A stretch of DNA of 64,000 bases from a virus. Position 1 is the first letter of the stretch; every line of letters begins with the position of its first letter. The position numbers and the translations under genes are program-made. Location of the stretch: IMG/VR virus record IMGVR_UViG_3300025466_000014; one strand, written 5' to 3'. Under the pieces are notes generated by a model. It saw only the letters and a list, made by a program, of their open reading frames with translations, had not been told where the DNA came from and made no database searches. Of this stretch, positions 10,519 to 33,878 are shown piece after piece.

Positions 10519-10872
10519 CTAGCTAATTAGTTTTGGCTGCCTTTGATTGTGCAGTTGATAACGTTCCACTGGGTTCTTGGAATCCCAGTAATTCGTAAGA
10601 CCATGCTCTACTGCGTAATCGGCTTTATCTGAGGCGTCACTTAAAAACGTGCAACTCTTGTCGTTTACAGAGGACGCAATCATGCTACCTTGTGGCGACA
10701 CGACAAACACAGACGGGTGTGCGCGTGAGTAGAGACCTGAAAACACTTCGTTTCCTAGTCCGTCAGTTCCATGCCTAGTAACCTCAGTAAAAATCCAGTA
10801 GGCACCTTGATGGTCTCTAAACTTCATTACTAAGTTTGAGGCTAGCAATCTTGTTTTGGCTTCTATCTTCAT
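10519..10872 (-). CDS. leader-bearing putative internal head protein
   Basis: Starts MKIEAKTRLLAS. Confidence 0.75.
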   Translation of the reverse strand: MKIEAKTRLLASNLVMKFRDHQGAYWIFTEVTRHGTDGLGNEVFSGLYSRAHPSVFVVSPQGSMIASSVNDKSCTFLSDASDKADYAVEHGLTNYWDSKNPVERYQLHNQRQPKLIS

Positions 10873-10894
10873 TTTTTAATCCCTCGATTCCTTG

Positions 10895-11122
10895 TTAAGC
10901 GTAACCTGCGGCACTCCAGACTCCGTCTACTTTCAGAGCATTTATTTCGTGTTTATGCTGATGCATACTTCCATAGGGACTCAGCTTGCCCATCATTTGT
11001 TTTAGGTAAGTAGGTGTAGCCTGAGAGGGATCGCAGACAACAAGATGTGTTGAGTACAAAATCTTGTTGTCTTTAATCTTAGGAAACTCAGAAGCTTTTA
11101 GCCTTGTTTTTGCTTTTAGCAT
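10895..11122 (-). CDS. leader-bearing putative internal head protein
   Basis: Starts MLKAKTRLKAS. Confidence 0.75.
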   Translation of the reverse strand: MLKAKTRLKASEFPKIKDNKILYSTHLVVCDPSQATPTYLKQMMGKLSPYGSMHQHKHEINALKVDGVWSAAGYA

Positions 11123-11123
11123 T

Positions 11124-11408
11124 TTACATATGATAGACTAAGAATATAAGCGCACTTATTTCTTTTTTGGTTAAACCTAGTTCTTCAGGTAATCCTTTAA
11201 GACTTAGGGCTTTGCGAACAACTTCTAAATATCGTTCATGCGTAGCAACTTCACCTTTGCCTGTCTTAATTAGCTCTTCTAAAGCAAACTCAAACATGCG
11301 CAACGAATGCTTATCGCCTTGCATAACGCCGTCAGCTAACCCGTCAGCAAACTCATAACAACGGTTAATAGCCTTTAATCGCAACCTAGCCCTAATCTTA
11401 ACACTCAT
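11124..11408 (-). CDS. leader-bearing putative internal head protein (variant leader)
   Basis: Starts MSVKIRARLRLKAI; SD AGGGAG. Confidence 0.7.
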   Translation of the reverse strand: MSVKIRARLRLKAINRCYEFADGLADGVMQGDKHSLRMFEFALEELIKTGKGEVATHERYLEVVRKALSLKGLPEELGLTKKEISALIFLVYHM

Positions 11409-11425
11409 CTTAGCTCCCTAAAGTC

Positions 11426-12607
11426 TTATATAGCCAACATTCGCATATCGAAACGTGAACGCTGAATTTCACCGTGCTTAATATGATACAAAATTGCGTT
11501 CATATCTTGTTCGCTGCGATAACCTTGACCATGATGCCAAGAATCTGACGGAGCTAAAGTACGGTGAGTTTCAACTACACAGCCGGGAAACTCTTTTGCG
11601 GTTTTGTGATGAATGTGCCCACAATGCCAAACACGAAAGTCTGTTTGACCCCAGTCTTCTTTGCGGTCGCGAGCCATTATGAGGGGGAGGTCTTGGAACT
11701 TTGCACCATGGCCGTGATGCGAAGCAATGAGGTTAGCCCCGAAGCGATGATACTTGTAAAGAGAAGTACCCAAGTCTACTTCAACGCGCGGTTCGTTATG
11801 AAAGTAAAACTTGATTGCCATTGCCAAGGCAAATGAGGCTTCTGGGTCATGGTTACCAGGCATCATCCAAAGAATGACCTTTTTATGCTTGGCTAGAAGT
11901 TTAAGGACGCTGTTAATTACCGCAAACGCTCCAGTGTACATTACTTTACCGTAACGACTGTCTACGTCAAGTTTATTGCCTCCACCTGGAGTTTCGTTTT
12001 TGTTGTCGTTGGCATGTGTAAAATCTCCCAGGTTAATTACCAACGCAGTCTCTGCGGGAGGCATAATGGAGATTAGATAGTCAAAAGCAGACTCTAGAGA
12101 ATGCTTGGAGATTTTACAATCGTAGTTTTTACCGGTTTCTTCTGCGTCTGAGCGCATACCATGATGATGGTCACCTATAGGGTAACAAGCCAAAAGGTCG
12201 GCGTTAGTAAAGGTCGGAGGTTTAACTACGGGCGCCTTGCCTTTAACGTCTGCGCACAAATCTTCTATAAATGCTTTAAGCATTGCGATGCGTTGCACAT
12301 CGTCAACTTTAGATTTGTACCAAGTTTGAGTAACTTCGTTGGTGCGATTGTTTACCAGCTGACTTACGCCGCTAAATTGAAAAGGCGTAGGCAGCGGCTT
12401 TCGATAGTCGTGCATATTTGGCATTTGTAATGCCGCTTGCGCTCGAAGTCTAGCTAAACCTCGCTCAATAGCTCTCGGAGCAATACCCATAGCTTTAGCC
12501 GCTTTAACCTGTGACCCATGTTTCTTAAGCGCATCTACGTACTCAATCTGCCTAACGGTTGCAAACTCTATCATGCTATCGTATGCTGTTATATTCTCTT
12601 TAGTCAT
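11426..12607 (-). CDS. calcineurin-like metallophosphoesterase with N-terminal HTH
   Basis: IGDHHHG, NLGDFTH, MPGNHD, SHHGH, CGHIHH motifs; HTH GSQVKAAKAMGIAPRAI. Confidence 0.85.
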   Translation of the reverse strand: MTKENITAYDSMIEFATVRQIEYVDALKKHGSQVKAAKAMGIAPRAIERGLARLRAQAALQMPNMHDYRKPLPTPFQFSGVSQLVNNRTNEVTQTWYKSKVDDVQRIAMLKAFIEDLCADVKGKAPVVKPPTFTNADLLACYPIGDHHHGMRSDAEETGKNYDCKISKHSLESAFDYLISIMPPAETALVINLGDFTHANDNKNETPGGGNKLDVDSRYGKVMYTGAFAVINSVLKLLAKHKKVILWMMPGNHDPEASFALAMAIKFYFHNEPRVEVDLGTSLYKYHRFGANLIASHHGHGAKFQDLPLIMARDRKEDWGQTDFRVWHCGHIHHKTAKEFPGCVVETHRTLAPSDSWHHGQGYRSEQDMNAILYHIKHGEIQRSRFDMRMLAI

Positions 12608-12978: not shown

Positions 12979-13071
12979 TGTTTGTCCTATTCAGGGCAAG
13001 CCTATTGGTTCGTCGGGTTGAGGCTCATAAACACCTCATCAAAGGTAACCGTTTTTAGTTTGTAAATCCTT

Positions 13072-13452
13072 CTATTTAGCCGTAGCTAAAAGTCTGCTTT
13101 TTGCTTTTATTAGCCCATAAAAAGATGCGACCATTCTCTGTACTTCAAGAAGGTCATACCTACGAATTTTTGAATACCAAGACATTAAAAATGCCTGAGA
13201 TACGTCAAACACTAAAGTATCGCCTTGTAGCGCATTGTCCGACCAACTTATCTCATCTCCTTCTTTAGGGCCTAAGACGTTTAGACCCAAAGACTCCAAG
13301 TAACGTGACAGCCCATGCAAAAAACCAGAAGACTTGGCACAGGTTTTAGGATTACCTTCTATTTTTACCAGCAGTTCTCTTTTCTTAAAATCAGCTACTA
13401 CTGAAGTCAATGCTATCTTGCCACGACCTGGGTAAATGTAAACCTGTGCCAT
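13072..13452 (-). CDS. hypothetical protein with leader-like motif at the C-terminus
   Basis: Ends LIKAKSRLLATAK*. Confidence 0.7.
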   Translation of the reverse strand: MAQVYIYPGRGKIALTSVVADFKKRELLVKIEGNPKTCAKSSGFLHGLSRYLESLGLNVLGPKEGDEISWSDNALQGDTLVFDVSQAFLMSWYSKIRRYDLLEVQRMVASFYGLIKAKSRLLATAK

Positions 13453-13460
13453 TTCAAGTC

Positions 13461-14048
13461 CTACTTTTTAAAATTCTTTTCAATTGCCGTTTCCAGAGCG
13501 TCTACTGCGTGATAGAATTTGTATGCCCAGTCTGTTAAAGCTTTCATGCGCTCCTGCACTTGCTGGCGGATATCGTCTACCTCATTAGCCCAGGCTTCCA
13601 TCTTTTTAGTGCCTTTGAATTTTTTATTCAGAGTAACCAGGTCTACGTCTTTTTTTACGCTAACGTCAATGACGCTGCTTAAGAGACCTTCAATGCTAAT
13701 AAAGTCTTGAAATCCAAAAATAACTTCTTTCCCCTTTACAGAAAAGCTGAAACCTAATTCAGTGCCCTTTTCTAAGGGATGTTTTGTGGTGAATGAAAGG
13801 TGTGTGTCACCTTCGTTGTCATAAATGCTTTTGTTTAGAGAGACTTTAAGTCCGTTCTTAGAAAAGACGTCAACAATAAATTTACCAGCCTGCTTGGCAT
13901 CCATGTTGGCTTGAACTGCGGTAGCAGCAAGTTCACCTTCACGAACTTTTTTCAAGTCCTCACCGTCAATCTTGCCGTCACCGTTAATGTCAAGCTTCTT
14001 TTGCTTTTGTGTCAATGCAAGCAATCGAGTTTTAGCTTTAAGTTCCAT
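13461..14048 (-). CDS. leader-bearing putative internal protein with EF-hand loop
   Basis: Starts MELKAKTRLLA; residues 20-31 DINGDGKIDGED. Confidence 0.75.
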   Translation of the reverse strand: MELKAKTRLLALTQKQKKLDINGDGKIDGEDLKKVREGELAATAVQANMDAKQAGKFIVDVFSKNGLKVSLNKSIYDNEGDTHLSFTTKHPLEKGTELGFSFSVKGKEVIFGFQDFISIEGLLSSVIDVSVKKDVDLVTLNKKFKGTKKMEAWANEVDDIRQQVQERMKALTDWAYKFYHAVDALETAIEKNFKK

Positions 14049-14918: not shown

Positions 14919-16268
14919 TTAGCTCTTGCTTATTTTTTGAACAACTAGATTAGTTAAAGCTTTTACGTCTAAGCTTGGCATGTAACCTTTGCAGTTGCTT
15001 TTTAATTTATCCCAGACCTCATTTTCAAGACGGTCACCTGAGTATTTTGCAACGTATCGTTTAGCGTATTCGCCAAAAGCTTCAATAACAGCATCAGCGT
15101 ATTTACCCATTAGCTCTGCGTCGGACGGGTCTACAATAGGCGCTAACTCAAAAGCCTTGGTCTCTTGATCTGTTAGGGCATGTGGGTACGTAATGATTCC
15201 GTGCCTTGCCATTTCGTAATGGACATTGGTTTTCTCAGGCCTAGGGTCAACAGAACTAAAACCTTTAGGGCAAGTGCCAATGCTTAGAGGCCTATTAACC
15301 ATAGCGTACTTAAATTCTTTTGAGGCCACTATCGTTTTGCTGAATGCTTTGAAGGCGTCAATTTCCGTAGGATGCAGAATTTTTGTTTTGTCTTTAAACT
15401 TGGAACCCGGATACTTACTCAGATATTTATGCTTGTCCTCATGAGGCAGTTTAGACAACCAATCTTGAGTTCGCCTAGAAGTCAGCACTGCCGGAGGCTT
15501 GCCAAATCTTTTGCGAAGTTTTTTAGCGCCAGTGTAGAATAAGCAGAGCAGAAGACTACCAGCGTTGTCGCCAATAAAGCTTGCAACCTGTTGCAGAGCA
15601 CCTAAACCATAGTCTACAACAGAGCCACCGGTCATGGCCCCAAAGACTAAGGTTGCTAGTGCGTTTACACCTTCAGCAGACGCAAAGAAGTCTACTAGGT
15701 CGTAATTACCGCGAAGAGCATCTATGATAGACTCAATAACGTCCAAATCACGTTCAATGTGTCCGGTGTTGGAGGCTTTAAAAACCATTAGCAGCAAGAG
15801 ACCTGCAATAGCAAAACCTGTAAGCTTAGACAATACTGGGTTTCGCTTTATAACTGCCTCCAAAGCAGCAATACGCTCTGCAGGTTTAAGGCTTCTTAGA
15901 TAACGAGTATCTTTGAACGTTGCTGCTAGGTCTTGTAGCGCAGCAACAAATAGGTTTGTAGGTAAACCCATTGCAGCCTTAATACCCTTTAGAATGGCCT
16001 TTAGAGAAAAGCCAACACCCTTTAGGAGTTTAAAGACCGATTTTTCTTGAAAAGCCGCAATTATTTCCCCAATGCCTACGCCCACACCCTTAAGTGACTC
16101 CACTAAAGTGCCCAAGTCGCCCTTTAGGACTTTAAGCATTGAGGGAATTTTAAAGTCAAAAGCTTCTACTCTTGAGGTATCAAGAGAGGCAATAACCTTA
16201 GCGTATTGCTCATAGGTTATTGCATTTAGATCATCAGCTTGTAAACGGTATGCGGCTTCGAGTTTCAT
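14919..16268 (-). CDS. leader-bearing protein with hydrophobic helical region and DarA_C-like domain
   Basis: Starts MKLEAAYRLQA; YAMVNRPLSIGTCPKGF..ARHGIITYPHALTDQETKAFEL resembles the DarA C-terminal domain. Confidence 0.7.
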   Translation of the reverse strand: MKLEAAYRLQADDLNAITYEQYAKVIASLDTSRVEAFDFKIPSMLKVLKGDLGTLVESLKGVGVGIGEIIAAFQEKSVFKLLKGVGFSLKAILKGIKAAMGLPTNLFVAALQDLAATFKDTRYLRSLKPAERIAALEAVIKRNPVLSKLTGFAIAGLLLLMVFKASNTGHIERDLDVIESIIDALRGNYDLVDFFASAEGVNALATLVFGAMTGGSVVDYGLGALQQVASFIGDNAGSLLLCLFYTGAKKLRKRFGKPPAVLTSRRTQDWLSKLPHEDKHKYLSKYPGSKFKDKTKILHPTEIDAFKAFSKTIVASKEFKYAMVNRPLSIGTCPKGFSSVDPRPEKTNVHYEMARHGIITYPHALTDQETKAFELAPIVDPSDAELMGKYADAVIEAFGEYAKRYVAKYSGDRLENEVWDKLKSNCKGYMPSLDVKALTNLVVQKISKS

Positions 16269-16597
16269 TTTGCAGCTCTTTTAGCTAGTTCATCTACCTT
16301 CTTGGTCTTAACTTTAACTTCTTTTTCTACTTCGGCTTTTTGTTTAATACCGCCCAAATTAAGGTAGCCGTTATAATTACCCACTTCTACTTTCCAGTCT
16401 AGTTGAAAACCGAAACGCACGGCAGGACGCAATTTAGAAGACCCTACGTCCAAGAAAGCGCGAAAATCCTTGCTGCTGTCTTTAACAACCGCAAATTTAG
16501 CCTCAGGGTATTGTTTAAGAACTTCTTCTTTCCATTCAGCTTTATTCTGCAACAATTTACTGGCAGTTAAAAGTCTTGTCTTGGCTTCGAGTTTCAT
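16265..16597 (-). CDS. leader-bearing putative internal head protein
   Basis: Starts MKLEAKTRLLTAS; SD GAGG. Confidence 0.75.
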   Translation of the reverse strand: MKLEAKTRLLTASKLLQNKAEWKEEVLKQYPEAKFAVVKDSSKDFRAFLDVGSSKLRPAVRFGFQLDWKVEVGNYNGYLNLGGIKQKAEVEKEVKVKTKKVDELAKRAAK

Positions 16598-16615: not shown

Positions 16616-17134
16616 TTAGAACGTGTTACCGTCATTCAGATAGTCGAAGCTAAAAGTAATAGACATATCAATAGCTGTAGACTGACTGCCGTCGTAAGCC
16701 ACATCTGCAATAGCTGTAGGGAAGCAGCCTACCAAGATAATAGTCTGGGTAATGTTACCGCTGTTGTCGTAGAGATCCAATTCCAAGTTTACTTTGTATG
16801 CTTGCGAAGTAGAGCCTGAATTGTTTTTCCAGGAACGCATGTAATCACGCCAGCCACGGAAAGCTTGGTAGGTTGAATAGTCAACGGTTTCCAAGAACTG
16901 AGCAGTAAAAGAATGCTCATAAAGAGCACGTCCTGCTTCCTGTTTAGCTGTACCGTGAAGTTCAATCTTAATAGTGTCTACAGAGGATGCCGGAAGCGTA
17001 GACGTTTTGCATTTGTAGGTTAGTCCAGTAGCAGAACCAGACGCGCCGGGAATGTTAGGAAAGAACAAATCAAAGTTCCAACCTTGTGCAGCGTCCGGTA
17101 GTGCGAGTACGTTTTGGTAAGAGGTGCGAGCCAT
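16616..17134 (-). CDS. tail tube protein
   Basis: 172 aa directly after the sheath; T4 gp19-like pattern (NFDLFF, CKTSTLP, LYDNSG..LVGCFPTAIADVAYD..SITFSFD). Confidence 0.88.
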   Translation of the reverse strand: MARTSYQNVLALPDAAQGWNFDLFFPNIPGASGSATGLTYKCKTSTLPASSVDTIKIELHGTAKQEAGRALYEHSFTAQFLETVDYSTYQAFRGWRDYMRSWKNNSGSTSQAYKVNLELDLYDNSGNITQTIILVGCFPTAIADVAYDGSQSTAIDMSITFSFDYLNDGNTF

Positions 17135-17182: not shown

Positions 17183-19153
17183 TCATGCTGTTTTGCCTGT
17201 AACCTGATTAAGCACTTCGGAGAACGAAACACCAGATTTAGAAATCACAACCTGCAGTTGAATTTCATGAATTGGAATCATCGGAATCAGAATTGCAGTA
17301 CACACCAGAATACCAGCGTTAAAGGTATCAGGAGTATTGTTAGAACTGTCGCAAACAAAGCGAGCAGCAGCAAGGCCCTGAGCAGCAACAATGCTGTCCA
17401 AATAAGCTTGACAGCCATTTGTTAGGCTACGGCGTACTTGGTCAGAATTCATTTCTTCCAAAGCGTACAGCAGATAAGAGTACAAGGAAGTCTTGATTAC
17501 GTTGACAATGCGACGTACAGACAACCAGCTAAGGGCCGATTGCTGACCTGCCAGTGTACGCTGTTCCCAAAGGGCAATACCTTGTCCAATAAAAGTGCGT
17601 GTGTAGTTAACCTGAGCCAAGTAAAGTGCCGTTGCCTTGCCGTCATCGTATTGATAACGGGTTTTAAGCACTGGCAGTAGGCCACGGTTTAGACCTGCAA
17701 TAGAGTAAGCTTGATTTGCCACACGGTCTGTACGAGCACACAAAGCTCCAGCCCAACCTGACGGCGGATTGTAGACTTGCAGTCCGTTAATAGTGTCTGC
17801 TTGCAACAAGTCAGGGCTAAACAAAGCACTATAAGTAGAATTCAAATTCAGTGTAAGATTACGATAGTCGATAGCACTCTGAAAGGCTTGGCTAGCTGAA
17901 GGTACGTCCAAAAGAGCAACCGCGTCACCACGAGCTTGCACTAAAGTATCCAATCCGATTTGTGTAATAGGATCGGTAACGCCGCCGTTAATAAAGACGT
18001 TTGGTTTGTAAACTTGCGTGTTCTTAAACACTTGCAAGGCGTTAACAATGTCGTACGAAGTGGGTGCAGTTCCCGACGCACCGCCAGCCAAAGCCGTTTG
18101 TGCAATAGTGTTAACTGGGGGGATAGTTGTAAGAGCATTAGCAAAGTTAACTACCTGCAGATACGACGAGAACGGGTTAATGGCGCTATCAATTTGCAAT
18201 TGCTGACCAGAGTTAGAAACTTGCGAACCCAATGTGCAAGTCCATGTCTCCAAGGCCAAAGCCAATGGGTTAGTGTTATCCCAGATAGAAACCGTAAACT
18301 GGTTAGTGGTCTTAACGTTAGCAGCCACAGTAATAGGTTGCACCGTAGTGGTTGCGGTCAAAGCACCAGTATCGGTGAATGTAGTAGTAGCGCCGCCCAA
18401 AACGGTTAGCAAGCCGTAGCCCGCACCGCTTGTACGACCGTACACGTTATATCCAACCGCACCAGAAATAGCCGGCCAAGTCAGGGTAACAGCACCTGTG
18501 GACGTAATACCTACAGCTACCGTGATAAGGGTAGACGCAAGACTTTCACCATTAGCACCCAAGGCAGAAACTTGGTAATTATAAGAAGTACTACCAGCCA
18601 AAGTACCGCCAGTAAGCGCAACTGAAGAGGAAAGTACGGGTTGCGATACGTTTAGGCTCTGGATAGAGATAGACAAACCATTACCGTAAGAACCTGGGCC
18701 CTTGTTAGCGTAGAAGAAGGCAACTGCCTGTGTGCCAGCAGACACGTCAGCATTGGTCAACAACGCGCTTAGGTTTGTGTTAGTAGGATCTGCAAGACCT
18801 TGTGGTACCAGAGAATAGATGCCAGTAGAAGAAACTTTTAGCAGTGCGCCAGAAGTTGCATAACTATGAACACCGCCTGTCAAAGTTTGATTAACCACAC
18901 GAACAGCCCAGAGATCGGAGCCTTCGTTAAAGTAGTTCAATGCACTCTGAATGGTCATAGAAACCGCAGGATTGGGGTTTCCGTATTCAGTAATAAAGTC
19001 GTTTGAGTTAGTAAAATGCAAAGGTGCCGTAGATCCCTGACTAGAAACAACGGCAATACATGCGGAGGTAACAGAGTTAGAGACAATAATAGAGCTTAGG
19101 TTAATCTCAGTAACGCGAACGTCCGAGGCTCTTTGAACAATTTGTGCAGCCAT
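17183..19153 (-). CDS. contractile tail sheath protein
   Basis: DVRVTEINLS N-terminus; EYGNP; YNPPSGWAGALCARTD; SIAGLNRG; LWEQRTL..LSWLSVRR; PMIPIHEI. Confidence 0.92.
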   Translation of the reverse strand: MAAQIVQRASDVRVTEINLSSIIVSNSVTSACIAVVSSQGSTAPLHFTNSNDFITEYGNPNPAVSMTIQSALNYFNEGSDLWAVRVVNQTLTGGVHSYATSGALLKVSSTGIYSLVPQGLADPTNTNLSALLTNADVSAGTQAVAFFYANKGPGSYGNGLSISIQSLNVSQPVLSSSVALTGGTLAGSTSYNYQVSALGANGESLASTLITVAVGITSTGAVTLTWPAISGAVGYNVYGRTSGAGYGLLTVLGGATTTFTDTGALTATTTVQPITVAANVKTTNQFTVSIWDNTNPLALALETWTCTLGSQVSNSGQQLQIDSAINPFSSYLQVVNFANALTTIPPVNTIAQTALAGGASGTAPTSYDIVNALQVFKNTQVYKPNVFINGGVTDPITQIGLDTLVQARGDAVALLDVPSASQAFQSAIDYRNLTLNLNSTYSALFSPDLLQADTINGLQVYNPPSGWAGALCARTDRVANQAYSIAGLNRGLLPVLKTRYQYDDGKATALYLAQVNYTRTFIGQGIALWEQRTLAGQQSALSWLSVRRIVNVIKTSLYSYLLYALEEMNSDQVRRSLTNGCQAYLDSIVAAQGLAAARFVCDSSNNTPDTFNAGILVCTAILIPMIPIHEIQLQVVISKSGVSFSEVLNQVTGKTA

Positions 19154-20060: not shown

Positions 20061-20276
20061 TTAAATGATTTTCTTGCACCATTTTTTGTATTCATAACGT
20101 AACTCCTCGTCTGAGGCGTCGTTAATTAAATAACGTTTGGCGTCTGCAAAATCGCCAACCTCACCTTCAACCTCGTAAGTCTTACGCATCTCGTCTAGAA
20201 TTTCTTCTGTGCATGTTTTGCGTTGTTCATTTGTAAGACCGGATGCCAAAAGTCGCAGTTTAGCTGCAAGTTTCAT
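20061..20276 (-). CDS. leader-bearing small putative internal head protein
   Basis: Second ATG gives MKLAAKLRLLAS; either ATG (20285 or 20276) could be the start. Confidence 0.7.
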   Translation of the reverse strand: MKLAAKLRLLASGLTNEQRKTCTEEILDEMRKTYEVEGEVGDFADAKRYLINDASDEELRYEYKKWCKKII

Positions 20277-20844: not shown

Positions 20845-21900
20845 TTAACGAATGCCCTTAGCAAATGAACGGCTGTTAGCAACCGACACTGCCAAAGATT
20901 CGTGAATTGCAAAACCGCGACCTGGCATCTTTTCCATAGAGATGTCAGTAGGAGTAGACTGCAGACCACCACGGTCAGAGTAAGCACCATGGTTAAGAGC
21001 GTCAGCAATAACGTAGAACTCACCCTTGCCGAGAACCTTGTGCTCTGGATGACGATAAGCGTCGGAAGTAACGGTCATGCCGTACATTACGCCCAGTTCA
21101 CCAGTCAACAACAATTCATGACGAGCAACTGGATCGATAGCGTTAAAGAAATCGCTATTACCAGTAATGTCTTGCCACAAGTCAGCAGCCAACAGCAAGT
21201 TAGCAGCCTTCATGCCCCACTGAGTTACTTGCGTAACAACAGTAGACAGCAAGTAAGGAGTCAACTGGCCAGAGATAATGGTCAAAGGATTGTCCACACC
21301 AACCAAAGTTTGCAATTGGTTATAGTACAAACGATCTTCTGCAACCATCGTAGCTTCCACGCCTTCGATGAATTTCTCTTGGAGAACGTCACCAGAAGAT
21401 TGGTTCAATTCAACTTGGGGAATGAAAGGACGTGCAATAACAGTCATTTCAGTTGGGGTAAACCATTTGTCACGAGTGATTTGGCTTTCCACCTTAGTGG
21501 GGCTGGTGCTCCAAACAGCGGTAACGTTCTTGGTGCGAACTGGGAAGCGAGGAATAGAACCTTGCTGCACGTCAATCTTAGCCAGATACTTACGCATGAA
21601 ACCTTGACGATTAGCGGTCTGATAAAGAGCATCAGAAATCTTTTCGCCCAGAACGCGGTGAGCTTCTTTGTCATTGAAAGCAGCCATAACCAATTCGCGG
21701 CTGGTAGCAGCGTCAATGGTCAGCATGTTGCCAGAGGCAGCAGCTTGCAAGAACTTGGATTGCTGAGTCAGCAAATCACGTTTAGACGAAGCATTCAGTT
21801 CGCCATTAGCACCAACAGCACGCTCGTTGGAATTAGCAAACTTCAGTTCTGTGGCCAAAATTGGTGCTTTAGAAGCACGAAGACTAACTTGATTACGCAT
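20845..21900 (-). CDS. major capsid protein
   Basis: 351 aa, strong SD GGAG, strong codon bias; HK97-fold-like segments (QGFMRKYLAK, EAT(M)VAEDR, GELGVMYGMTVTSD); downstream of protease and scaffold. Confidence 0.85.
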   Translation of the reverse strand: MRNQVSLRASKAPILATELKFANSNERAVGANGELNASSKRDLLTQQSKFLQAAASGNMLTIDAATSRELVMAAFNDKEAHRVLGEKISDALYQTANRQGFMRKYLAKIDVQQGSIPRFPVRTKNVTAVWSTSPTKVESQITRDKWFTPTEMTVIARPFIPQVELNQSSGDVLQEKFIEGVEATMVAEDRLYYNQLQTLVGVDNPLTIISGQLTPYLLSTVVTQVTQWGMKAANLLLAADLWQDITGNSDFFNAIDPVARHELLLTGELGVMYGMTVTSDAYRHPEHKVLGKGEFYVIADALNHGAYSDRGGLQSTPTDISMEKMPGRGFAIHESLAVSVANSRSFAKGIR

Positions 21901-24318: not shown

Positions 24319-24867
24319 TTATTTGAATGTAACTACTCTACCCATAAGGAAGAACTGCTTAATGCCGCAGTTTATGGGCGTTGTAGACTTTTCAGGAACA
24401 ATACCCTTTTCGGCAATGCTCTTGAGCAGATCGTCTGTTATGTATCGTGCCCGGTCAAACTCGCCTCTAAAGAACATTTGAACAGGCATGTAGGCATCAT
24501 TTGTTAGTTCCCTGATTGCGTCTGCGCGAGCACGGCCTTCGTGTGTCTTAATCTTTGCCATGCCCTTTTCGTCTACTGCAATTTCCAAGAATGGTACGGC
24601 AATAGGACGGCCATCTTCCATTAGCTTTTTTAGCTTTGCCGTGTCTTCAGTTCTGTCCGCCGGCGCCGCTAATTTTCTAAAAACAGAAGGTTTAATAAAA
24701 GTAGTGCATCCAAGGTAGGCTACGTTAGCTCCCAGTGGAGTGTTACCTGCGCCCTTGCGGTTGTCGTAGGCAATCCCTGAGAAGTTAAAAGCGTCATCTA
24801 CATTTTCAGGAGTAGCATTGTCTTCATGAGTTGCTCTAAGTCTATAGGCTGCATTTAGAATCATCAT
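24319..24867 (-). CDS. leader-bearing ParB/Srx-like protein
   Basis: SD AAAGGA before MMILNAAYRLRAT; PIAVPFL..HEGRARADAI resembles the ParB N-terminal fold. Confidence 0.6.
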   Translation of the reverse strand: MMILNAAYRLRATHEDNATPENVDDAFNFSGIAYDNRKGAGNTPLGANVAYLGCTTFIKPSVFRKLAAPADRTEDTAKLKKLMEDGRPIAVPFLEIAVDEKGMAKIKTHEGRARADAIRELTNDAYMPVQMFFRGEFDRARYITDDLLKSIAEKGIVPEKSTTPINCGIKQFFLMGRVVTFK

Positions 24868-24874: not shown

Positions 24875-25675
24875 TTACTTGGTAACCACCCAAAAGTCAC
24901 ACGCTAAACTTGGATTGGTGACGTAAGCATAGGGTAACCAGAAGTAGCCTTGCTGTGCCCAATTAGGTCCCCAGGAGTTACGAACTAAAACGTACTGACT
25001 TGTATTGTTGTAGCCTACCATTAACACAGCATGACCACCGTGACACGGCTCACCTAGCTGAGGCATAGAAGCAACACCTGACATTGCAACTTGAGGGCTT
25101 TCAAAATTCTCAAAGACTTGGAAACCAAAAACAATGGGATACCCAGAAGCCAAAGTGTGTTTAATGCTTTGAATATCCTGTGGAACCGCAGCGTAAGCAG
25201 AGATTTTTCGGTTAGCGCTCTGATCGTAGGCTGGTTGCGGTGGACGGACCGCAAAAGCCTGAATTACGTAAGGCCATGTTGCCTCGTCGCAAACACCGAC
25301 ATTGGCTAGTACTTTAATACCATCGCGAAGTGCCGCACCGCCATCTTCGGTAACCGTTCCCTCAATAGCCCGTTCGTTAAAATAAAGAAATAGGCGGCTA
25401 AGTGAAGCAAAGCCGTTAATCTCCAAGTCACGGTCTTTGTTTTCTAGATATTCTAAAGCACCGCAAAGAGCATTGGCAGTGCAGCTTCCAAGTTCACCTT
25501 GGTCAAACACAGGAGAGCAATGACTGCGGAGGTCTACGATATTAGGAATTTCAGAAGGCTCTACAAGTTTAAAGGCTTTTGACTCGTGCACCAGATGATC
25601 TCGTGCATCTGGTTTCTGCTTTTGCCAAGTGTACTTTTTACCAACAACAGACGCATGTTTCATGTTTGTTTCCAT
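24875..25675 (-). CDS. papain-like C1A cysteine protease (xylellain-like)
   Basis: VDLR..PVFDQGELGSCTANA (Gln, Cys), GGHAVLMVGY (His), VRNSWG..W..QGYF (Asn). Confidence 0.93.
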   Translation of the reverse strand: METNMKHASVVGKKYTWQKQKPDARDHLVHESKAFKLVEPSEIPNIVDLRSHCSPVFDQGELGSCTANALCGALEYLENKDRDLEINGFASLSRLFLYFNERAIEGTVTEDGGAALRDGIKVLANVGVCDEATWPYVIQAFAVRPPQPAYDQSANRKISAYAAVPQDIQSIKHTLASGYPIVFGFQVFENFESPQVAMSGVASMPQLGEPCHGGHAVLMVGYNNTSQYVLVRNSWGPNWAQQGYFWLPYAYVTNPSLACDFWVVTK

Positions 25676-26089: not shown

Positions 26090-26839
26090 CTACCAGTTAA
26101 AGTGTGTGTCGGACAAACAGACTACCCAGGCAGGATCAGCAACAAGGCTCATTTCAATTGGAGACAAGCCGTGTGCGTTTAGATACGCAAGCTTTTCTTC
26201 TCCGCCTTCGTTAATTAGCCGCCAATTTACATCCTTAATTGTCGTAATGTGGCCGCAGTTTTTAAACTGATTATCTGTAGCCTCTTTACCGCACACAGAG
26301 CATGTAAAGTAGTCTGCTTCTGTTCCCATAGAGCCGGTGTTAAGTTCGCCAGTAAGAACTCTATTGGCTACTTCAGGATTTTTGGTCTTGTCGATACCAA
26401 CAAGACCCATTACCTTCCAGTGTCGATCTTCGCCAAAACCTTTAATAGGAGTAAGCATTGTATCAAATACTACGCCCAGAGCTTTTGTACAATCTCGGTT
26501 ATCGTGTTCCAAATGCACCGGACAGCCCGCCCAGGCTTTGTACACCTGACGATTTACCGGTGGTGGCTGGAACTTAATAAGCTCTTGCAAAGGAAAGGCA
26601 ATGCCGTTTCGGTTGGGCATATCCGAAGGACAGATAGGCAAAATCTTTAGAATATAGTCTTCAATGCGCGGACTAATGTGGTAAGTTTTTGCTGCAAAAG
26701 GAAGCCATGAGAAATCTACCGCGGCAATAGGATCGGCTGCGTTCATAGCTTCTTCCTTTTTAATAGGCATTTCCGGGTAGCTTATGTCTGCAACAATTGG
26801 TTTTTTGTTTTCATAGTAAGCTTTTGGAAACTTTTGCAT
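26090..26839 (-). CDS. prohead maturation protease
   Basis: Start MQKFPK (TAATG overlap); PNRNG, VHLEHDN, GELNTGSMG, CxxC..C insert, IEMSLVADPA as in HK97/assemblin-fold proteases. Confidence 0.8.
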   Translation of the reverse strand: MQKFPKAYYENKKPIVADISYPEMPIKKEEAMNAADPIAAVDFSWLPFAAKTYHISPRIEDYILKILPICPSDMPNRNGIAFPLQELIKFQPPPVNRQVYKAWAGCPVHLEHDNRDCTKALGVVFDTMLTPIKGFGEDRHWKVMGLVGIDKTKNPEVANRVLTGELNTGSMGTEADYFTCSVCGKEATDNQFKNCGHITTIKDVNWRLINEGGEEKLAYLNAHGLSPIEMSLVADPAWVVCLSDTHFNW

Positions 26840-27225
26840 TATGCCGCTCCAATAAATAAAGTAGCTGCTCCTGTAAACGTTATTAGCAGAGCAGTCGTTG
26901 GATATGAGATGTTTGTTAGTACACCGGTAGAAACAGTAACTGCGGTTTGCCAATGACTAGTTGAGTCATTGTTTGGATCTAGGGCGAACTCAATAGGCAC
27001 TAGCGTCGTTTGTACGTTTACAGGACCAGTGCCCAATTTTTGTACCGAGATAGTGTTAACTCTTACCTTACCGGTTACCAAAGCGTCAATAGGTATGCGA
27101 GCAACATCGCCAGCGCCTCCTTGTACGGTAACGTAACCAAAGGGGACTTTTCGAGTTACGTACCCACCACTTCGGTTATTTCCGTTAATGCCCGAAATGG
27201 CATTGTTTCTAATTATGGCAGCCAT
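26839..27225 (-). CDS. putative structural protein
   Basis: Beta-rich, Thr/Gly/Val-rich; coupled to the protease gene. Confidence 0.65.
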   Translation of the reverse strand: MAAIIRNNAISGINGNNRSGGYVTRKVPFGYVTVQGGAGDVARIPIDALVTGKVRVNTISVQKLGTGPVNVQTTLVPIEFALDPNNDSTSHWQTAVTVSTGVLTNISYPTTALLITFTGAATLFIGAA

Positions 27226-27687: not shown

Positions 27688-30600
27688 TTAGCGTGTCTTC
27701 TTGGTAACCTTTTCCTCTGCCACCGCTTTAGGATCTTGCGCAGGTCCAATATCTACGGTTGCATCGTTTTTAAGTTCCATGATGTTAGACAACTTACGAA
27801 TGGACTTAGCTTGAACATTAAGTTGGTCAATGTTGTTAACGCTAATTCCAGCGTCCTTCAATTGTCCCAGAATCTTATGAATGCCCCCAATGTTGGCTGC
27901 ATAGATACTAAGTGAAGGATTGCTAATTACCCAGTTAGTGGACGGAGCCTTATAACGAGAGCTCATAGCCTTTGCTGTTGCAGGATGACCTGCACCGTAC
28001 GGCATTGCCAAATAAGCTACACCATAACGCGGTGCAACACCAGCCTTAGCTGCTTCCCTCAGAGCCGCAGCATCGCGATCACCACCGTCCGTAACCAACG
28101 CAAACATTTGCAGCAACTTAGGATTCGACGTTGGCTTCCAACCCAAACGCATGTAATTCATATAGGCAGCCTTGCCCATAAGTTTTGCATAGTGTTTGTG
28201 TGTTTGCAAAGCATTGCTATCCAACTCTTGAGCCAACGTAATGAACGCATCCGAATCAACTTCGGTAGAAACGTTAAAGCCTGCGTCAGCCCACAGACGG
28301 AATTGAGTAATCAGTTGCTTATGATTACGAATACGAGTGTGAACCATCTTAGGTTCTAACTTAAAGCCCAAAGCCTCCAAAGCCTTAACCGCGCGTTTGT
28401 CAGAACTTTCAATGTATCCAAGACGAACGTAGCCGTTAACGATAGTCAAGTCCAGACCAATAGAAAGCTTGCCTTCCTTCTTACGAGCCTTCTGTTTTTC
28501 TAACAGACGTTGACGTTCCTGTTCTTTGGCAATTTCGCGTTGCTGTTTTAGTGTCAACTTAGCAGGCTTAGAGTAAACTGCAGGCGCTGTAATTTCGCCG
28601 GTAACAGGCAAGCCAGCGGCCTCTGCGAGTTTAATCTTCATGTCGTTGGAGTTAGTCTCAGTGCGCGTAATAATAAAAGCATTAGTAACACGCAAACGAG
28701 AAACCACAGTGCCGTCGTCTAAGGATACACGCAAAGCAGTAACAGATTCGCCTTTAACACGACCAGCCGACAGGATAAATCCATCACCGTATTCTGTATG
28801 AACACGTTTACCAGCCAACAGTTCTTTTTGACGGCGAATCTCAGGATTCTTTGCACCGGTTTCGTCTTCGTCATCTCCACCTGGACCAGAATCATCATCT
28901 TCGTCATCAGTAGACAACTCAAGGCCAAGGTAGTTGTCAACACGGACTAAACCTAGTTCAGAAGCTGCGTAAAGCTCTGTACCTTGTGCGTAAGGTACCG
29001 CAGACAAAATAGCTGCACCAGTTGGGACAGGGGCCACCTTAATAGGCGTAAATTTCACCCCACCCTCAGCCTGCTGTTTGGCCTTGTATTCTTCGTAGTC
29101 AGAAGTAACAACAGAATTCAGTTGTTGCATCGAACGCTGGTACTGAGCCAGGTTGGTATCAAAGTCATTCTTAGTCTGAATAGCTTCCAGGTTCATTGGA
29201 ATGATTGGGATATCTTCAATTGACTGATAGGCTGGGTCTGTAGAGTTATCAAACTTAGCCAAAGCAACAATCTTTGCCCGCAAACGTGCTGCTTTAGTAA
29301 CGTCAATAGTGCGGTTAGCAACCAATGTGTCGAATCGCAGACGTTGACGTTGGTCACCACCCTTACCAAAGTAAGGACGTGCAATACGGCAATCACCTTG
29401 CTCTTGTTCACCAGGGGTCCACACACCTTCAACACGAGCCAAGTAACCAGCAATCTGCAAGTTTAAGCCAACTTCAAGCGACTTACGAATACCAATCATC
29501 CATTTGATGTTTGGATCTTTCTTGAAACGATTAACGTGTTCTGTCTTTTGTGAGGCAGAATAGAGCAAACCGCATTTTTGCAACTCAGGAGGCATTGAAG
29601 CGAACAGAGACGCAGCAGATGCATTGTAGTTAACGAAAACAATTGCCTTAGAAGTATTGTTTTCAAACCAGTCAGTCAGCAAGCGGGCCAACTGCATAGC
29701 TTTAGGAGATTTCAGGTCGTCACCAGACAAAGGTGGAATAAACTTACCTTCTTCTGTTTTAAAACCGTTAACAGAGTAAGGATGCGATGCTGGATCAGTA
29801 ACAAAGCGCTCAATGTCTGCAAGGTAGGGTTGCAAAGCAGGGCCTACGTCGCCGTTATCGTCAAGAATGTCTTCAGTATTTGCATCTTCGTCAGCTTCGT
29901 CCATATCGCCAAAGTTTTCCTCATCTTCAGCGGAAGCTTTCTTGCCGTTAAGTTTTTCCAGAAGTTTACGCGCACCTTTGTCTGTTTCAGCTAACTTCTT
30001 AATCTGCTGAATCATGTCATCAAAGATAGCGTCGTACATTACCTTTTGATTTGCAGTCAACTCAACCGAAATAAATCGGTCTTCACGTTTAGGGAGAGCG
30101 TAAGCCCACTCACGACGTTTAGCAGAAGCCCATACAACAGAACCCTTTAACTTAGGCAGAATGTGAGCAATCGAGTTCTCACCACTAGTGCGCCACTGCA
30201 TAACACGATCACCGCTGACGTTCTCACCGTAGGTCTGATTGAAGTCGTTACGTGTACCAAAGATTGTTGGGTCAAGAATAGCCATTTGACCAGGGAGGTC
30301 AGAAGGCGAATCCGGATTAAGAGTACCTGAAGCAATACGCTTTTTAGGAATGTCGGCGATAAGGCTCATTACTGCCTTAGCACGAGCAGACTTAGCGTTC
30401 TTGAGAAAGTGCGACTCATCCAAGAACACATACCCAGGACGGAACTGACGAATCAACTCAGTTACAGGGAATACTAGGATAGAAGACGTTCCATAGCCAG
30501 CCGAACGAGCGCGGAATTTCAACGCGTCGTAATCAACAATCATAACAGTATTGATGGGAGCAGCCTTTAGAATCTGCTCATAACGAGCAATACCAGAAGT

Positions 30601-32457
30601 CCTAAAGTTATAGGACGTAATTGGAATCACGTTAACTTGACCGTCAGTAAACTCTACCAGTTCTGAAACGTAGTTAGCCACTAGGTGACCAGGGCACATA
30701 ATCAGATAAGGAGCCGAACGGTTAGCCTTAATCTCGTACAAAACGTCTGTAATAGCAAGCAAGCTCTTACCACCGCCAGCAGCAACATCCAAAACGGCTA
30801 GGTCAGGAGACTCGCGCAGCAGACAACGGATTTTAACTTGATGCGGTTGTAGCCCTGCGTCAGGTTTGCTGAATTTATCTGTAAGCAGCGGAGCGTCCGG
30901 AGGAGTCCAATCAGGAATTACACCCTGATTAAGTGCGCCTTTGTTTGCCTCATTTGCCTCAGCACGTACTTGGCTAATCTTGCTACCGTAGCAAGCAAGG
31001 AGGGAAATGATACCCAGCTGGCTGGTTATAGTAACAACCGCATACTTGGCGTAAAGTGCTTCCAAGTTTTTAGTCATGCCCTCATGCAAGGCATAGATAA
31101 ATTCTACCACTGGCAAAAAGCCAGGCTGATCTGTCTCGGCAGTAAAGTCTGCATAGCGCAAGACAAAGTTGGGCTGTTCTTTAACAGTAGCTTCCCATAC
31201 CTTCTCAAAATACTGATCAATAGTTACGTTGCTTAGGTAACCTTTGGCGTTAGCCTCAGCGGTTTCTTCTGCTGTAAGGGCACCCAGATAGCGCGATACG
31301 TTTGTAGGTACGCTGCATTGCGCCGCAAAGTTAACAAGACCTTTGAGGAAAGCGGGATTAACATTACGATTAAGCAGATTCATTGCCATGGTAGGAGTGC
31401 ATTTGCGGAAATGCTCCATGGGCATAATCTGAATCTTACCGCTTGTATCCGAATAAGAAAATTTGTTGTTAATCCAGTCTACCAAGATGGGCAGATTAGA
31501 CGGTAACCGAGGGCGCATGTTAGACTTAGGAGTGCGCAAAGCAAATTCACCGTTTTCTCCCACGCTTGCACTTGCGTAAGTAGACTCATAGATAGTCGTG
31601 TTATCGCAAACGCTAGGAATGTAGAGTGGGTCTCCGTCCATGTTAATGGCAATAGAGTACTGGTCAACTCGCTCATCCAAGGGATCGTGTTTGGGGAGCG
31701 TCTCAGAAATGCGAGACATCGAAATGGCAGACTTGCCGTAGTATTTAGAGACGTATTCTGCTTCCACCCAGGCACTAACCAAAGGGTACAAATCAACAGC
31801 ACGTACCTGCAGCCAGTCTGTAGAGGTCAAAAACTCTACAACTTCTTTTGGAATCTTAAACTCCAAATAAAGAACAGAAGGCGTACCTGCCTTGATTACT
31901 GCGGCTTCTAGAGTAGTCGAAAATATGGACTTGGTACCGTTATCGAGGCCGGAGTTTAAGAACAATTTTGTAACCGGATAACGCTTACCACCAGAAGCCA
32001 AAGCTACGCGAATCTCTTCAAGAGTCTCTTCTGCCGGAGGCACGTCCGTAAACAACTGGAGAGTGTTAAACAGGTTGTCAACACTATTCATGGCAAGGAT
32101 AGGAAGCTCAAGCTTAAAATACGGAGCTTCGGTATTGAATTTTACCAGAGTAGTGTACTGAGCCAAAGCCATTTCTTGGCGATTATTTTCCCAGTCACTG
32201 AGTGCCTTAGACATTGCCTTCTTTGCCTTGCGCTCTTCTTGAGACACTGCGCGAGGAGGTTTAGCAAGGCTAATAACGCGAGTGTCCATAAAGGCACCCA
32301 ATGCAAGTTTCAAAAGAACCTTTCGGGCATCGCCGGTATAGACCTTACGAAATACTCCAAGAAAACCTGTTTTTAGAGTTGCGTCGGAAACAGAGTAAGC
32401 CTGATCTTGGACGAGGTTCGTCTTAGGTCGAGCTATCTGAAAAGCTTTTAATTCCAT
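27688..32457 (-). CDS. large SNF2/SWI2-family ATPase (1589 aa)
   Basis: LQPHQ, DVAAGGGKS, MCP, FLDESH, IASGT, motif V SLEVGLNLQ, motif VI EQGDCRIAR; SH3/KOW-like VHTEYGDG; starts MELKA. Confidence 0.88.
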   Translation of the reverse strand: MELKAFQIARPKTNLVQDQAYSVSDATLKTGFLGVFRKVYTGDARKVLLKLALGAFMDTRVISLAKPPRAVSQEERKAKKAMSKALSDWENNRQEMALAQYTTLVKFNTEAPYFKLELPILAMNSVDNLFNTLQLFTDVPPAEETLEEIRVALASGGKRYPVTKLFLNSGLDNGTKSIFSTTLEAAVIKAGTPSVLYLEFKIPKEVVEFLTSTDWLQVRAVDLYPLVSAWVEAEYVSKYYGKSAISMSRISETLPKHDPLDERVDQYSIAINMDGDPLYIPSVCDNTTIYESTYASASVGENGEFALRTPKSNMRPRLPSNLPILVDWINNKFSYSDTSGKIQIMPMEHFRKCTPTMAMNLLNRNVNPAFLKGLVNFAAQCSVPTNVSRYLGALTAEETAEANAKGYLSNVTIDQYFEKVWEATVKEQPNFVLRYADFTAETDQPGFLPVVEFIYALHEGMTKNLEALYAKYAVVTITSQLGIISLLACYGSKISQVRAEANEANKGALNQGVIPDWTPPDAPLLTDKFSKPDAGLQPHQVKIRCLLRESPDLAVLDVAAGGGKSLLAITDVLYEIKANRSAPYLIMCPGHLVANYVSELVEFTDGQVNVIPITSYNFRTSGIARYEQILKAAPINTVMIVDYDALKFRARSAGYGTSSILVFPVTELIRQFRPGYVFLDESHFLKNAKSARAKAVMSLIADIPKKRIASGTLNPDSPSDLPGQMAILDPTIFGTRNDFNQTYGENVSGDRVMQWRTSGENSIAHILPKLKGSVVWASAKRREWAYALPKREDRFISVELTANQKVMYDAIFDDMIQQIKKLAETDKGARKLLEKLNGKKASAEDEENFGDMDEADEDANTEDILDDNGDVGPALQPYLADIERFVTDPASHPYSVNGFKTEEGKFIPPLSGDDLKSPKAMQLARLLTDWFENNTSKAIVFVNYNASAASLFASMPPELQKCGLLYSASQKTEHVNRFKKDPNIKWMIGIRKSLEVGLNLQIAGYLARVEGVWTPGEQEQGDCRIARPYFGKGGDQRQRLRFDTLVANRTIDVTKAARLRAKIVALAKFDNSTDPAYQSIEDIPIIPMNLEAIQTKNDFDTNLAQYQRSMQQLNSVVTSDYEEYKAKQQAEGGVKFTPIKVAPVPTGAAILSAVPYAQGTELYAASELGLVRVDNYLGLELSTDDEDDDSGPGGDDEDETGAKNPEIRRQKELLAGKRVHTEYGDGFILSAGRVKGESVTALRVSLDDGTVVSRLRVTNAFIITRTETNSNDMKIKLAEAAGLPVTGEITAPAVYSKPAKLTLKQQREIAKEQERQRLLEKQKARKKEGKLSIGLDLTIVNGYVRLGYIESSDKRAVKALEALGFKLEPKMVHTRIRNHKQLITQFRLWADAGFNVSTEVDSDAFITLAQELDSNALQTHKHYAKLMGKAAYMNYMRLGWKPTSNPKLLQMFALVTDGGDRDAAALREAAKAGVAPRYGVAYLAMPYGAGHPATAKAMSSRYKAPSTNWVISNPSLSIYAANIGGIHKILGQLKDAGISVNNIDQLNVQAKSIRKLSNIMELKNDATVDIGPAQDPKAVAEEKVTKKTR

Positions 32458-32816
32458 TTTTTAATATCCTCGGTTATTTTGGTAAGTTGGGAAAATTCTT
32501 TTAAATCTTGAGGCTCTAGCTGGTACTTGCTTTGGTAGGCTACTCTATATAGCTCTTTGTACTTCTGTATGGTTAAAATTGATAGGCTCAGAGTTAACCT
32601 TAATTCCTTAGCCTGGTTTACGCCTAAGCTAAATTTAGGTGTCCCTGGCTGGTTTTTAAGAACGTTTTTACTATAGGCTCCTCGGGCTCTTGCAACAGCC
32701 TGCGCAACCGATACTCCCAGAATTGTTCCTGAGTATCTAGGCGTACTCTCAAATTCAAAGTTAAACAGATAATATTTAGGCGTAACCTCAGGTATTCTAG
32801 CGGCAACTTTTGTCAT
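32448..32816 (-). CDS. hypothetical protein
   Basis: Tightly packed minus-strand ORF. Confidence 0.65.
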   Translation of the reverse strand: MTKVAARIPEVTPKYYLFNFEFESTPRYSGTILGVSVAQAVARARGAYSKNVLKNQPGTPKFSLGVNQAKELRLTLSLSILTIQKYKELYRVAYQSKYQLEPQDLKEFSQLTKITEDIKKWN

Positions 32817-32817
32817 T

Positions 32818-33471
32818 CTATATTGACCTTATTACTGGAACCTTATAAGGCCTTTTAGAGCTGGCTATAGGTTTCCAAAGACTGTTAAAGATAAAATCCT
32901 TTAAATTTTGACCTTCAGCGTCCGGATGAATTGGGCAACGTAGAATGTAACCTATGTGCCACTGATTGAGAGAGTTTATTTGGTCGTTGGCAATAAACAC
33001 TTCAAGTCCAGGCTCCCAGGAAACGCTGTAGAATGTCTTATCATTTTTACGGAGACGACTAAACCTATAAGGTATAGGAAACCTAAACACCTGCTTGAAC
33101 CAAGAAGCATCCTGTACTCTGTATTGACCTGAGACGCGTATCTCAAATCCGTAGTCGGTAATGGTTACCTCATGTTTGACATTTAATATCGGCTTCAAAC
33201 CTCGAAGAAACTTAGTTCTGTCTAAAAAGAGAACAAACTGAGAACGTCGTTTAAAAAGGTACTGCCTAATAGCACTGTTAGCGTCACCTTTAAAAAACGG
33301 GTCTAAGCCTTGAGCCTGACAAAGATTTATAAACTTTTCTAAGACAATTACCCAAGCTTCTTTAGACGTCAATTTAGCCGCGCCTGTACTAAGGCAGGCT
33401 TGAAACCAAGCGTCCGCAGCAAAAGGGTTTAAGCTCTTAGGAAAGTCTAAAGGGTTTGGGTAGTTGTTCAT
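32818..33471 (-). CDS. hypothetical protein
   Basis: Tightly packed minus-strand ORF. Confidence 0.7.
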   Translation of the reverse strand: MNNYPNPLDFPKSLNPFAADAWFQACLSTGAAKLTSKEAWVIVLEKFINLCQAQGLDPFFKGDANSAIRQYLFKRRSQFVLFLDRTKFLRGLKPILNVKHEVTITDYGFEIRVSGQYRVQDASWFKQVFRFPIPYRFSRLRKNDKTFYSVSWEPGLEVFIANDQINSLNQWHIGYILRCPIHPDAEGQNLKDFIFNSLWKPIASSKRPYKVPVIRSI

Positions 33472-33473
33472 TT

Positions 33474-33878
33474 TTAAGGCTGAAGGTCGTCCATCAAAAG
33501 AGATTGCTCTGGCGGAGTTTCAACACCACCGTCATCGTGGGTTAGAACTTGCAATTCTGGTTTTTCGCCGTTTTCAGGCACACCATCATTTTTTAAGTCA
33601 AACACTACGCCTGTTTTAGGCAGCTCACGTGTTTCAGAGTTAACGTATGTAGCCTCAGGAGGCATTTCAACGCTAACAAACTTGTTTAGCTTATCAAAGT
33701 AACCGTATTTAACTTTTGCACCTTTTACACGGCTAGCATCCTTCTCTGCTGACTTACGGTCAACGTGCTGGTCATGATTTTGACCAGGAAAGAATACCCA
33801 CCAAAGAGGCTTATTATTAAACACATAATCATAGTCGCCTTCAGAAGCCTGAAGGCGAATCTTAGCTGCTAGTTTCAT
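33474..33878 (-). CDS. leader-bearing putative internal head protein
   Basis: Starts MKLAAKIRLQAS; SD AAAGGA. Confidence 0.75.
   Translation of the reverse strand: MKLAAKIRLQASEGDYDYVFNNKPLWWVFFPGQNHDQHVDRKSAEKDASRVKGAKVKYGYFDKLNKFVSVEMPPEATYVNSETRELPKTGVVFDLKNDGVPENGEKPELQVLTHDDGGVETPPEQSLLMDDLQP

Follow-up and report, generated by a model that had tools for sequence, protein, structure and literature searches.

A candidate cargo-loading leader peptide on unrelated virion-block proteins of RSL1-like jumbo phages

Phage T4 marks unrelated head-internal proteins (IPI-III, Alt) with an N-terminal peptide of about 10 residues, the capsid targeting sequence (CTS), which ends in the cleavage motif of the prohead protease gp21 that removes it; sites of this type are also found in the T4 capsid and scaffold proteins (PMC5694885). 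Here we analyze a stretch of 64,000 nucleotides (IMG/VR record IMGVR_UViG_3300025466_000014, hereafter the window), which by its sequence is part of an uncultured RSL1-like jumbo myovirus, kin of Ralstonia phage phiRSL1. According to a check of the translations, nine minus-strand open reading frames (ORFs) at 10519-33878 start with a leader peptide of the type K-[LI]-x-A-x-x-R-L-x-A. Like the T4 CTS, the leader is short, N-terminal and shared by unrelated proteins; it ends in a predicted cleavage motif that recurs in the capsid protein and a scaffold-like protein, and a prohead protease of gp21/assemblin fold is encoded in the head module. It differs from the CTS in having no sequence similarity to it (the leader logo shows Ala at P1 and Arg at P4, with no Glu at P1, as opposed to the [LI]-x-E of T4) and in its 68 candidate cargo families in the sampled loci compared with a handful.

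Herpesvirus assemblins cut after Ala, in pseudorabies virus at YLQA-T and VQA-S (PMC4498786), and the leader resembles these R- and M-sites both in the fold of the protease and in a hydrophobic-x-Ala ending followed by Ser or Thr. The herpesvirus sites differ in location, being internal to the protease-scaffold polyprotein or at its C-terminal end and not in N-terminal cargo tags, and the residue after Ala is looser in the leader. Phage P1 loads anti-restriction cargo into its head via N-terminal signals: the first 30 residues of DarB suffice to load a reporter (PMC9024508), and DarA sits on the inner surface of the capsid, its N-terminus having been removed by the prohead protease (PMC12810830). 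One of the leader-bearing proteins of the window, 449 residues long, carries the DarA_C domain of this system. However, the Dar proteins have no consensus leader, and the P1 protease Pro resembles HK97 gp4 by HHpred rather than gp21 (PMC9024508); the P1 major capsid protein (MCP) is cut after Glu120.

In phage 80alpha, the non-homologous capsid and scaffold proteins (CP and SP) likewise share an N-terminal leader, of 13-14 residues, which is removed at a fixed site (PMC5744158). That leader differs in being cut, between F and A, by the host cysteine protease Prp, which also matures ribosomal protein L27, and in being carried by structural proteins rather than diverse cargo. The Phe-Ala of the 80alpha/L27 type is missing from the window leader. 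Prp is an enzyme of Firmicutes, and the cultured RSL1-like relatives infect Burkholderiales. The jumbo myoviruses phiKZ and SPN3US are similar in that many head-internal proteins are processed by a gp21-like protease, and different in that their propeptides vary in length and sequence, with only [SAG]-x-E in common (PMC5694885). For SPN3US, only paralogues such as gp53 and gp54 have been noted to have the same first 15 residues.

The leader in the window and among relatives

An original prediction, made from the letters of the window, had claimed that nine otherwise unrelated ORFs share an N-terminus. All nine starts hold up: there is an ATG at each quoted coordinate on the minus strand, each translation gives the quoted peptide, and pairwise BLASTP of the nine proteins without their leaders finds no match below E 0.03. 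In seven of them the ATG lies 1-5 codons past an in-frame stop, without any alternative start codon, which makes the leader truly N-terminal; each of the other two has one weak alternative start upstream. Purine-rich stretches of Shine-Dalgarno type precede most of the nine starts. Eight of the leaders match K-[LI]-x-A-x-x-R-L-x-A, with Met at P10-P13. The ORF starting at 11408, listed at first as a variant, carries the leader and is no variant, since it follows the canonical pattern, R-L-K-A included, in a 13-residue register. In the ORF starting at 16597 one residue is inserted (R-L-L-T-A) and the L-x-A-S ending is kept.

Neither chance nor a repeated DNA element accounts well for these starts. 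In 89 genes one would expect R-L-x-A-[STDL] among the first 15 residues 0.10 times, and at least 6 cases are seen (Poisson P ~1.5e-9). The Arg of the leader copies is encoded by AGA, AGG, CGA, CGT and CGC, the Leu by TTG, TTA, CTA and CTT, and the Ala by GCC, GCT and GCA, so that the leader is conserved at the protein level, as had been proposed for it from the start. Enrichment among virion genes, likewise anticipated, is found both in the window, where about 31 virion-block genes include nine carriers and about 55 other genes none (Fisher P 4e-5), and in Achromobacter phage Motura, where 15 of the 17 ORFs tagged genome-wide lie inside 33 kb around the head genes (P 4e-11). One marginal leader-like start occurs outside the virion block, at 50713 in the DNA-modification block; it has Gly at P1 and is compatible with chance (~0.2 such matches expected). 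That a DNA or RNA element at late-gene starts, an optimum for translation initiation or leftover paralogy could produce the pattern without any protein signal might be argued from the general frequency of M-K starts and from the A-rich upstream regions. We give this idea almost no credence: the codon diversity effectively refutes it, the mature parts are unrelated, and the motif also occurs inside another protein and at C-termini (below).

phiRSL1, BcepSauron and Motura have leaders of the same type, and so do dozens of uncultured relatives. Our sample of relatives consisted of 80 IMG/VR loci centred on homologues of the prohead protease, of MCP-centred loci and of the window itself. BLASTP sorts the 109 non-identical tagged proteins of this sample into 68 families. 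Among 151 unique leaders, positions that the search had not fixed are still conserved (Met at P11 in 41%, Lys at P10 in 41%, Leu or Ile at P9 in 75%), and conservation stops sharply past the Ala at P1, where P1' is A, T, S, D or L. In 564,000 translated residues, 92 of 118 unique matches to the core motif sit directly after Met. A search free of any motif, by similarity of N-termini within a locus, returns the leader as the largest group in the majority of loci with a protease at least 48% identical. Recognisable domains on tagged proteins are rare (DarA_C, DUF3175, SprT-like, RNase_T, GNAT). SNF2 and Helicase_C also came up among them and were discarded as false positives, because the "leader" of the helicase concerned (in locus L038) starts at an internal Met, and this Met is not conserved in the window. 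In locus L005 the leader is joined straight to a DarA_C-only protein of 142 residues, whereas 300 residues lie between leader and domain in the window homologue, which indicates that the tag moves independently of its cargo.

Seven of the nine cargo proteins in the window have no match in Pfam or PHROGs. They include the product of 10519..10872 (minus strand, as are all ORFs in this paragraph; 117 aa), which has the canonical 11-residue leader with a predicted cut after Ala11. Next in coordinate order are ORFs of 75 aa (10895..11122; 10-residue leader) and 94 aa (11124..11408; the 13-residue leader with R-L-K-A in the longer register). Further along lie the 110-aa ORF with the inserted residue (16265..16597), which adjoins the tail tube gene, and two tagged ORFs for acidic proteins, of 71 aa (20061..20276) and 134 aa (33474..33878); the family of the latter has the leader in 7 further loci. 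The 449-aa protein (14919..16268) has its DarA_C domain at residues 317-378 (PF18789, E 5.8e-14, above the curated cut-off) and matches residues 404-498 of the P1 DarA chain 9ukm_I at E 7e-9. It shares only this C-terminal domain with DarA, and not the capsid-binding N-terminal part. In the 195-aa protein (13461..14048), whose orthologue in locus L005 is leader-bearing too, the leader is followed by an EF-hand/dockerin-like Ca-binding loop with a Pfam match below the curated cut-off (E 6e-4). The 182-aa protein (24319..24867) possibly has a ParB_N-like fold, which is a lead only; the leader-bearing ORF133 of phiRSL1 also lies directly downstream of the protease gene (ORF132 in phiRSL1), a likeness of position. 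Of the payload named in the original prediction, the DarA_C domain is thus borne out, the EF-hand remains a sub-threshold Pfam match and the ParB-like call a mere Atlas lead.

A leader-like peptide can also stand at the other end of a protein. The 126-aa ORF at 13072..13452 (minus strand) has one at its C-terminus, ending 3 residues ahead of the stop (K-A-K-S-R-L-L-A-T, then 2 residues and the stop codon), and its orthologue in L005, 66% identical, keeps A-K-A-R-L at the C-terminus. Leader-like C-termini also occur on unrelated-looking proteins in three other loci (L031, L033 and L048). The tag may work at the C-terminus too, or these copies may be remnants of gene fusions.

The prohead protease and its predicted sites

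A candidate for the peptidase that would remove the leader is the 249-aa product of 26090-26839 (minus strand; phrog_18299). By sequence, nothing is found for it in Pfam or in a PDB sequence search, and Foldseek alone gives nothing significant. Its AF2 model (pLDDT 85) was compared exhaustively with 48,161 chains, and the three best structural matches are all capsid-maturation proteases, namely T4 gp21 (5jbl; Z 8.8 over 128 residues, 3.0 A) and the proteases of varicella-zoster virus (1vzv; Z 7.1) and human cytomegalovirus (8j3s; Z 5.8). Candidates for a His-Ser-His catalytic triad are H112, S170 and H197, which do not vary among 40 homologues, and H109, conserved in at least 90%; their spacing is gp21-like. 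In a weak hhalign alignment (E 0.3), H109 and S170 pair with gp21 residues 85 and 140, which we take to be the catalytic His85 and Ser140. The mechanical ORF call for this gene, 26090-26953 (from a TTG, 287 aa), is too long: in the database form and in the homologues the protein begins at the ATG at 26839, and this frees a separate ORF of 128 aa at 26839-27225.

The last three positions of the leader recur in two further proteins of the head module. The MCP (20845-21900, minus strand; phrog_2522) begins with a decapeptide that ends in L-R-A-S, a short form of the leader motif ([VIL]-x-A) at equal distance from the N-terminus, and most of 47 unique MCP orthologues of the clade show, by eye, an N-terminus of the form M-x(2-5)-[VI]-x-[VIL]-x-A-[SAT]-[KR]-x-P. 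The acidic, scaffold-like p475 (22690-24117, minus strand; 475 aa) has R-V-K-A-A at its N-terminus, where its orthologues have a similar [VIL]-x-A, then an acidic half, and then, at residues 236-245, an internal site that resembles the full leader. This site, [KR]-x-N-R-[IV]-[IV]-A-[ST], follows a stretch of about 20-38% Asp plus Glu and is kept in some 40 of 48 unique orthologues. By sequence comparison, then, an [VIL]-x-A ending is common to leader, MCP and p475, the cleavage sites being predicted. The MCP and p475 sites keep only P5-P1, and the cargo leaders also keep P10, P9, P7 and P4 and a fixed length.

The three kinds of site also disappear together. In phage PhiXhv-12 (locus L004) both the MCP and p475 have homologues, and a protease 37% identical is encoded by PhiXhv-15, a close relative of PhiXhv-12; loci L082 and L084 keep the protease (40-43% identical), the MCP and p475. 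The leader is missing from PhiXhv-12 and from L082/L084, and so are the MCP motif and the p475 site. That three unrelated classes of protein have the motif together, and lose it together, is expected of a protease recognition site. The leader thus looks like a substrate of an Ala-specific member of the gp21/assemblin clan, with a predicted cut after the Ala at P1.

Proposed cargo targeting and cleavage, and the alternatives

We favour, with somewhat better than even confidence, the reading that the leader is a tag of the T4 CTS kind, which would target cargo to the prohead and would be removed after its Ala. Late proteins would be made with an N-terminal tag of 11-13 residues (Met at P11, Lys at P10, Leu or Ile at P9, Ala at P7, Arg at P4, Leu at P3, Ala at P1). 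The tag would bind a component of the prohead core, either the acidic p475 or the protease itself, and the bound cargo would become enclosed while the shell assembles. The gp21/assemblin-fold protease would then cut past the P1 Ala. Through the same minimal [VIL]-x-Ala site it would also remove about 9 residues from the MCP and cleave p475 at two places, one close to the N-terminus and one past the acidic half. Mature cargo would remain in the head and probably enter the host along with the DNA. This cargo would comprise the DarA_C protein and small acidic and basic proteins, and in relatives also SprT-like, RNase_T-like and GNAT proteins. The additional positions conserved in cargo leaders plausibly serve the targeting to the prohead core, by analogy with the T4 CTS (PMC5694885).

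The presence of a head protease, the motif shared by MCP and p475, and a DarA prototype that is internal to the capsid support in part the targeting and cleavage that the original prediction had read into the leader. What stands of the proposed address tag is a portable, protein-level tag on unrelated late proteins, a gp21/assemblin-fold protease encoded in the same block, and the motif in MCP and scaffold-like protein. The leader had further been called a candidate new signal. No published description of the leader was found in the searchable literature (which leaves out the phiRSL1 virion papers, Virology 2010 and Structure 2013), in keeping with novelty; the tag is clade-wide, and it is a variant of the T4 CTS principle rather than a new principle. 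The novelty lies in the leader sequence, in the predicted preference for Ala, in how many cargo families there are and in the lineage; the principle is already known from T4, and in part from P1, phiKZ/SPN3US and 80alpha.

Several observations speak against a removable targeting tag. Proteomic, N-terminal or genetic evidence of packaging, cleavage or ejection in this clade was not found in the same literature. The specificity of the protease is inferred, and the characterised gp21-type phage proteases (those of T4, phiKZ, 201phi2-1 and SPN3US) all cut after Glu (PMC5694885). Phage G is of no help here, as its MCP structure (6wkk) is too distant to place the mature N-terminus and the phage G papers contain no cleavage data. 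The Z of 8.8 for the fold match is little above the usual background of the tool, and the hhalign alignment with gp21 falls short of significance. At P1', Leu, Asp or Ile is frequent, unlike the Ser or Thr of assemblin sites. Some of the tagged genes, at 16265-16597 and 10519-11408, are located amid tail genes, which makes a destination in the tail or baseplate possible for tagged proteins, and the short motifs of MCP and p475 could be conserved for structural reasons. Finally, the C-terminal copy in 13072-13452 would not be removable by a cut after Ala, and such copies fit a docking role better than a removable propeptide.

A docking role is the core of one alternative, in which the leader stays uncleaved as an amphipathic beta-strand or hook on the inner surface of the capsid, the portal, the lumen of the tail tube or the baseplate. 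The alternation of residues along the leader, hydrophobic or small at P9, P7, P3 and P1 and polar at P10, P8 and P4, suggests an extended strand and is the pattern of an amphipathic one; the tagged genes among tail genes and the leader-like C-termini of 13072-13452 and of the three other loci point the same way. We nevertheless regard retention as unlikely, given the strong N-terminal bias (92 of 118 matches), which fits a removable propeptide, and given that MCP and p475 have the same ending and that this ending disappears along with the leader in outgroups which still have the protease in diverged form. Removal, in turn, need not mean addressing. The leader might be a propeptide only, a site for the prohead protease or for autocatalysis that keeps proteins inactive or soluble, with entry into the head set by other parts of the protein. 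MCP and p475, which need no address, share the [VIL]-x-A ending, and conservation ends exactly at P1, as one would expect of such a propeptide. The cargo leaders, however, conserve P10, P9, P7 and P4 and a length of 11-13 residues beyond what the MCP and p475 sites have, and a separate head-binding surface in each of 68 unrelated, mostly tiny families is hard to imagine, so that we consider this account, too, improbable.

The leader could also be processed by an enzyme other than the prohead protease, for which the maturation of 80alpha CP and SP, whose leader is common to ribosomal protein L27, by host Prp sets a precedent (PMC5744158). Besides a Prp-like host enzyme, one might think of the papain-like peptidase encoded at 24875-25675 (minus strand; Peptidase_C1, E 7.5e-19), whose gene adjoins a tagged gene inside the head module. 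We rejected this peptidase as the leader peptidase, since it has no homologue in loci L001-L011 (phiRSL1, BcepSauron, Motura and others), several of which are leader-bearing. Against a host enzyme stand the occurrence of the leader in phages of several hosts, and in a window of about 43% G+C, and its absence from the outgroups PhiXhv-12 and L082/L084, by which the leader follows the phage lineage. Processing by another protease therefore appears to us a distinctly slim prospect.

Returning to a CTS-like tag cut by the prohead protease, we advance a broader proposal only tentatively and at less than even confidence. In RSL1-like jumbo phages, which are widespread in soil and water metagenomes, one portable 11-residue tag would load dozens of interchangeable effectors into the head, and the prohead protease would remove it after Ala, as herpes assemblins do, and not after Glu. 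Distant lineages with the same protease family would have other leaders, each specific to its lineage. Tag and protease would co-evolve, forming a means of cargo loading general to jumbo phages and usable for protein delivery. If this is true, packaged and probably injected proteins could be listed from sequence across a clade of uncultured giant phages, and the leader would point to candidate effectors of anti-defence and host takeover, most of them ORFans. An Ala-specific phage enzyme would tie the gp21-type proteases of phages to the maturation proteases of herpesviruses not in fold alone but also in the choice of substrate. Foreign proteins could be brought into jumbo-phage capsids by a short tag, much as is already possible with the T4 and P1 signals. 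The cultured relatives phiRSL1, BcepSauron and Motura make the reading testable.

Gene context and other shared N-termini

The virion block of the window (10.5-39 kb, minus strand) has the same gene order as phiRSL1. The window MCP is 67% identical to phiRSL1 ORF136 and 58-66% identical to the MCPs of the Burkholderia phages BcepSauron/BcepSaruman and BCSR5 and of Motura; among 50,697 phage records, megablast with 24 kb as query returned no close DNA relative. Other structural genes of the block, all on the minus strand, encode the tail tube (16616-17134), which resembles the N-terminus of phiRSL1 ORF142, the tail sheath (17183-19153), a virion protein (21938-22666) and a connector/portal-like protein (34531-35985).

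A giant SNF2-family helicase of 1589 aa (27688-32457, minus strand) is encoded between the head protease and the portal-like genes, and is likewise placed in phiRSL1 (ORF129), BcepSauron and Motura. We considered it as tagged cargo and rejected it, as its N-terminal motif is a different one, [LIV]-R-P-x-x-N-L, which is conserved in all relatives. Possibly the helicase is packaged as DarB is, by a signal of another kind.

Some further genes, all on the minus strand, have recognisable domains. An HTH plus calcineurin-like phosphoesterase protein (11426-12607) is encoded within the virion block. An HNH endonuclease gene (33880-34170) lies between a tagged gene and the portal-like gene, and ORF122 in the head region of phiRSL1 is also HNH. 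A protein with an SprT-like metallopeptidase domain is encoded at 35985-37001 and a type IB topoisomerase-like protein (PF01028) at 40380-42047. A TGT/DpdA-like transglycosylase gene (PF01702; 47874-50391) stands beside a group-1 glycosyltransferase gene and small ORFs, up to about 53600, and this set of genes looks like a cluster for DNA base hypermodification.

Distant lineages, with proteases 40-48% identical, have other shared N-termini near their head genes. Starts of the type M-K-L-x-I-S-L-A-S are found in loci L081 and L084, of the type M-K-V-L-N in L079, of the type M-N-F-A-[ST]-R-[VL]-L-A in L068 and of the type I-A-x-R-L-Q in L077, a hint that jumbo phages with head proteases of this family may generally have leaders specific to their lineage.

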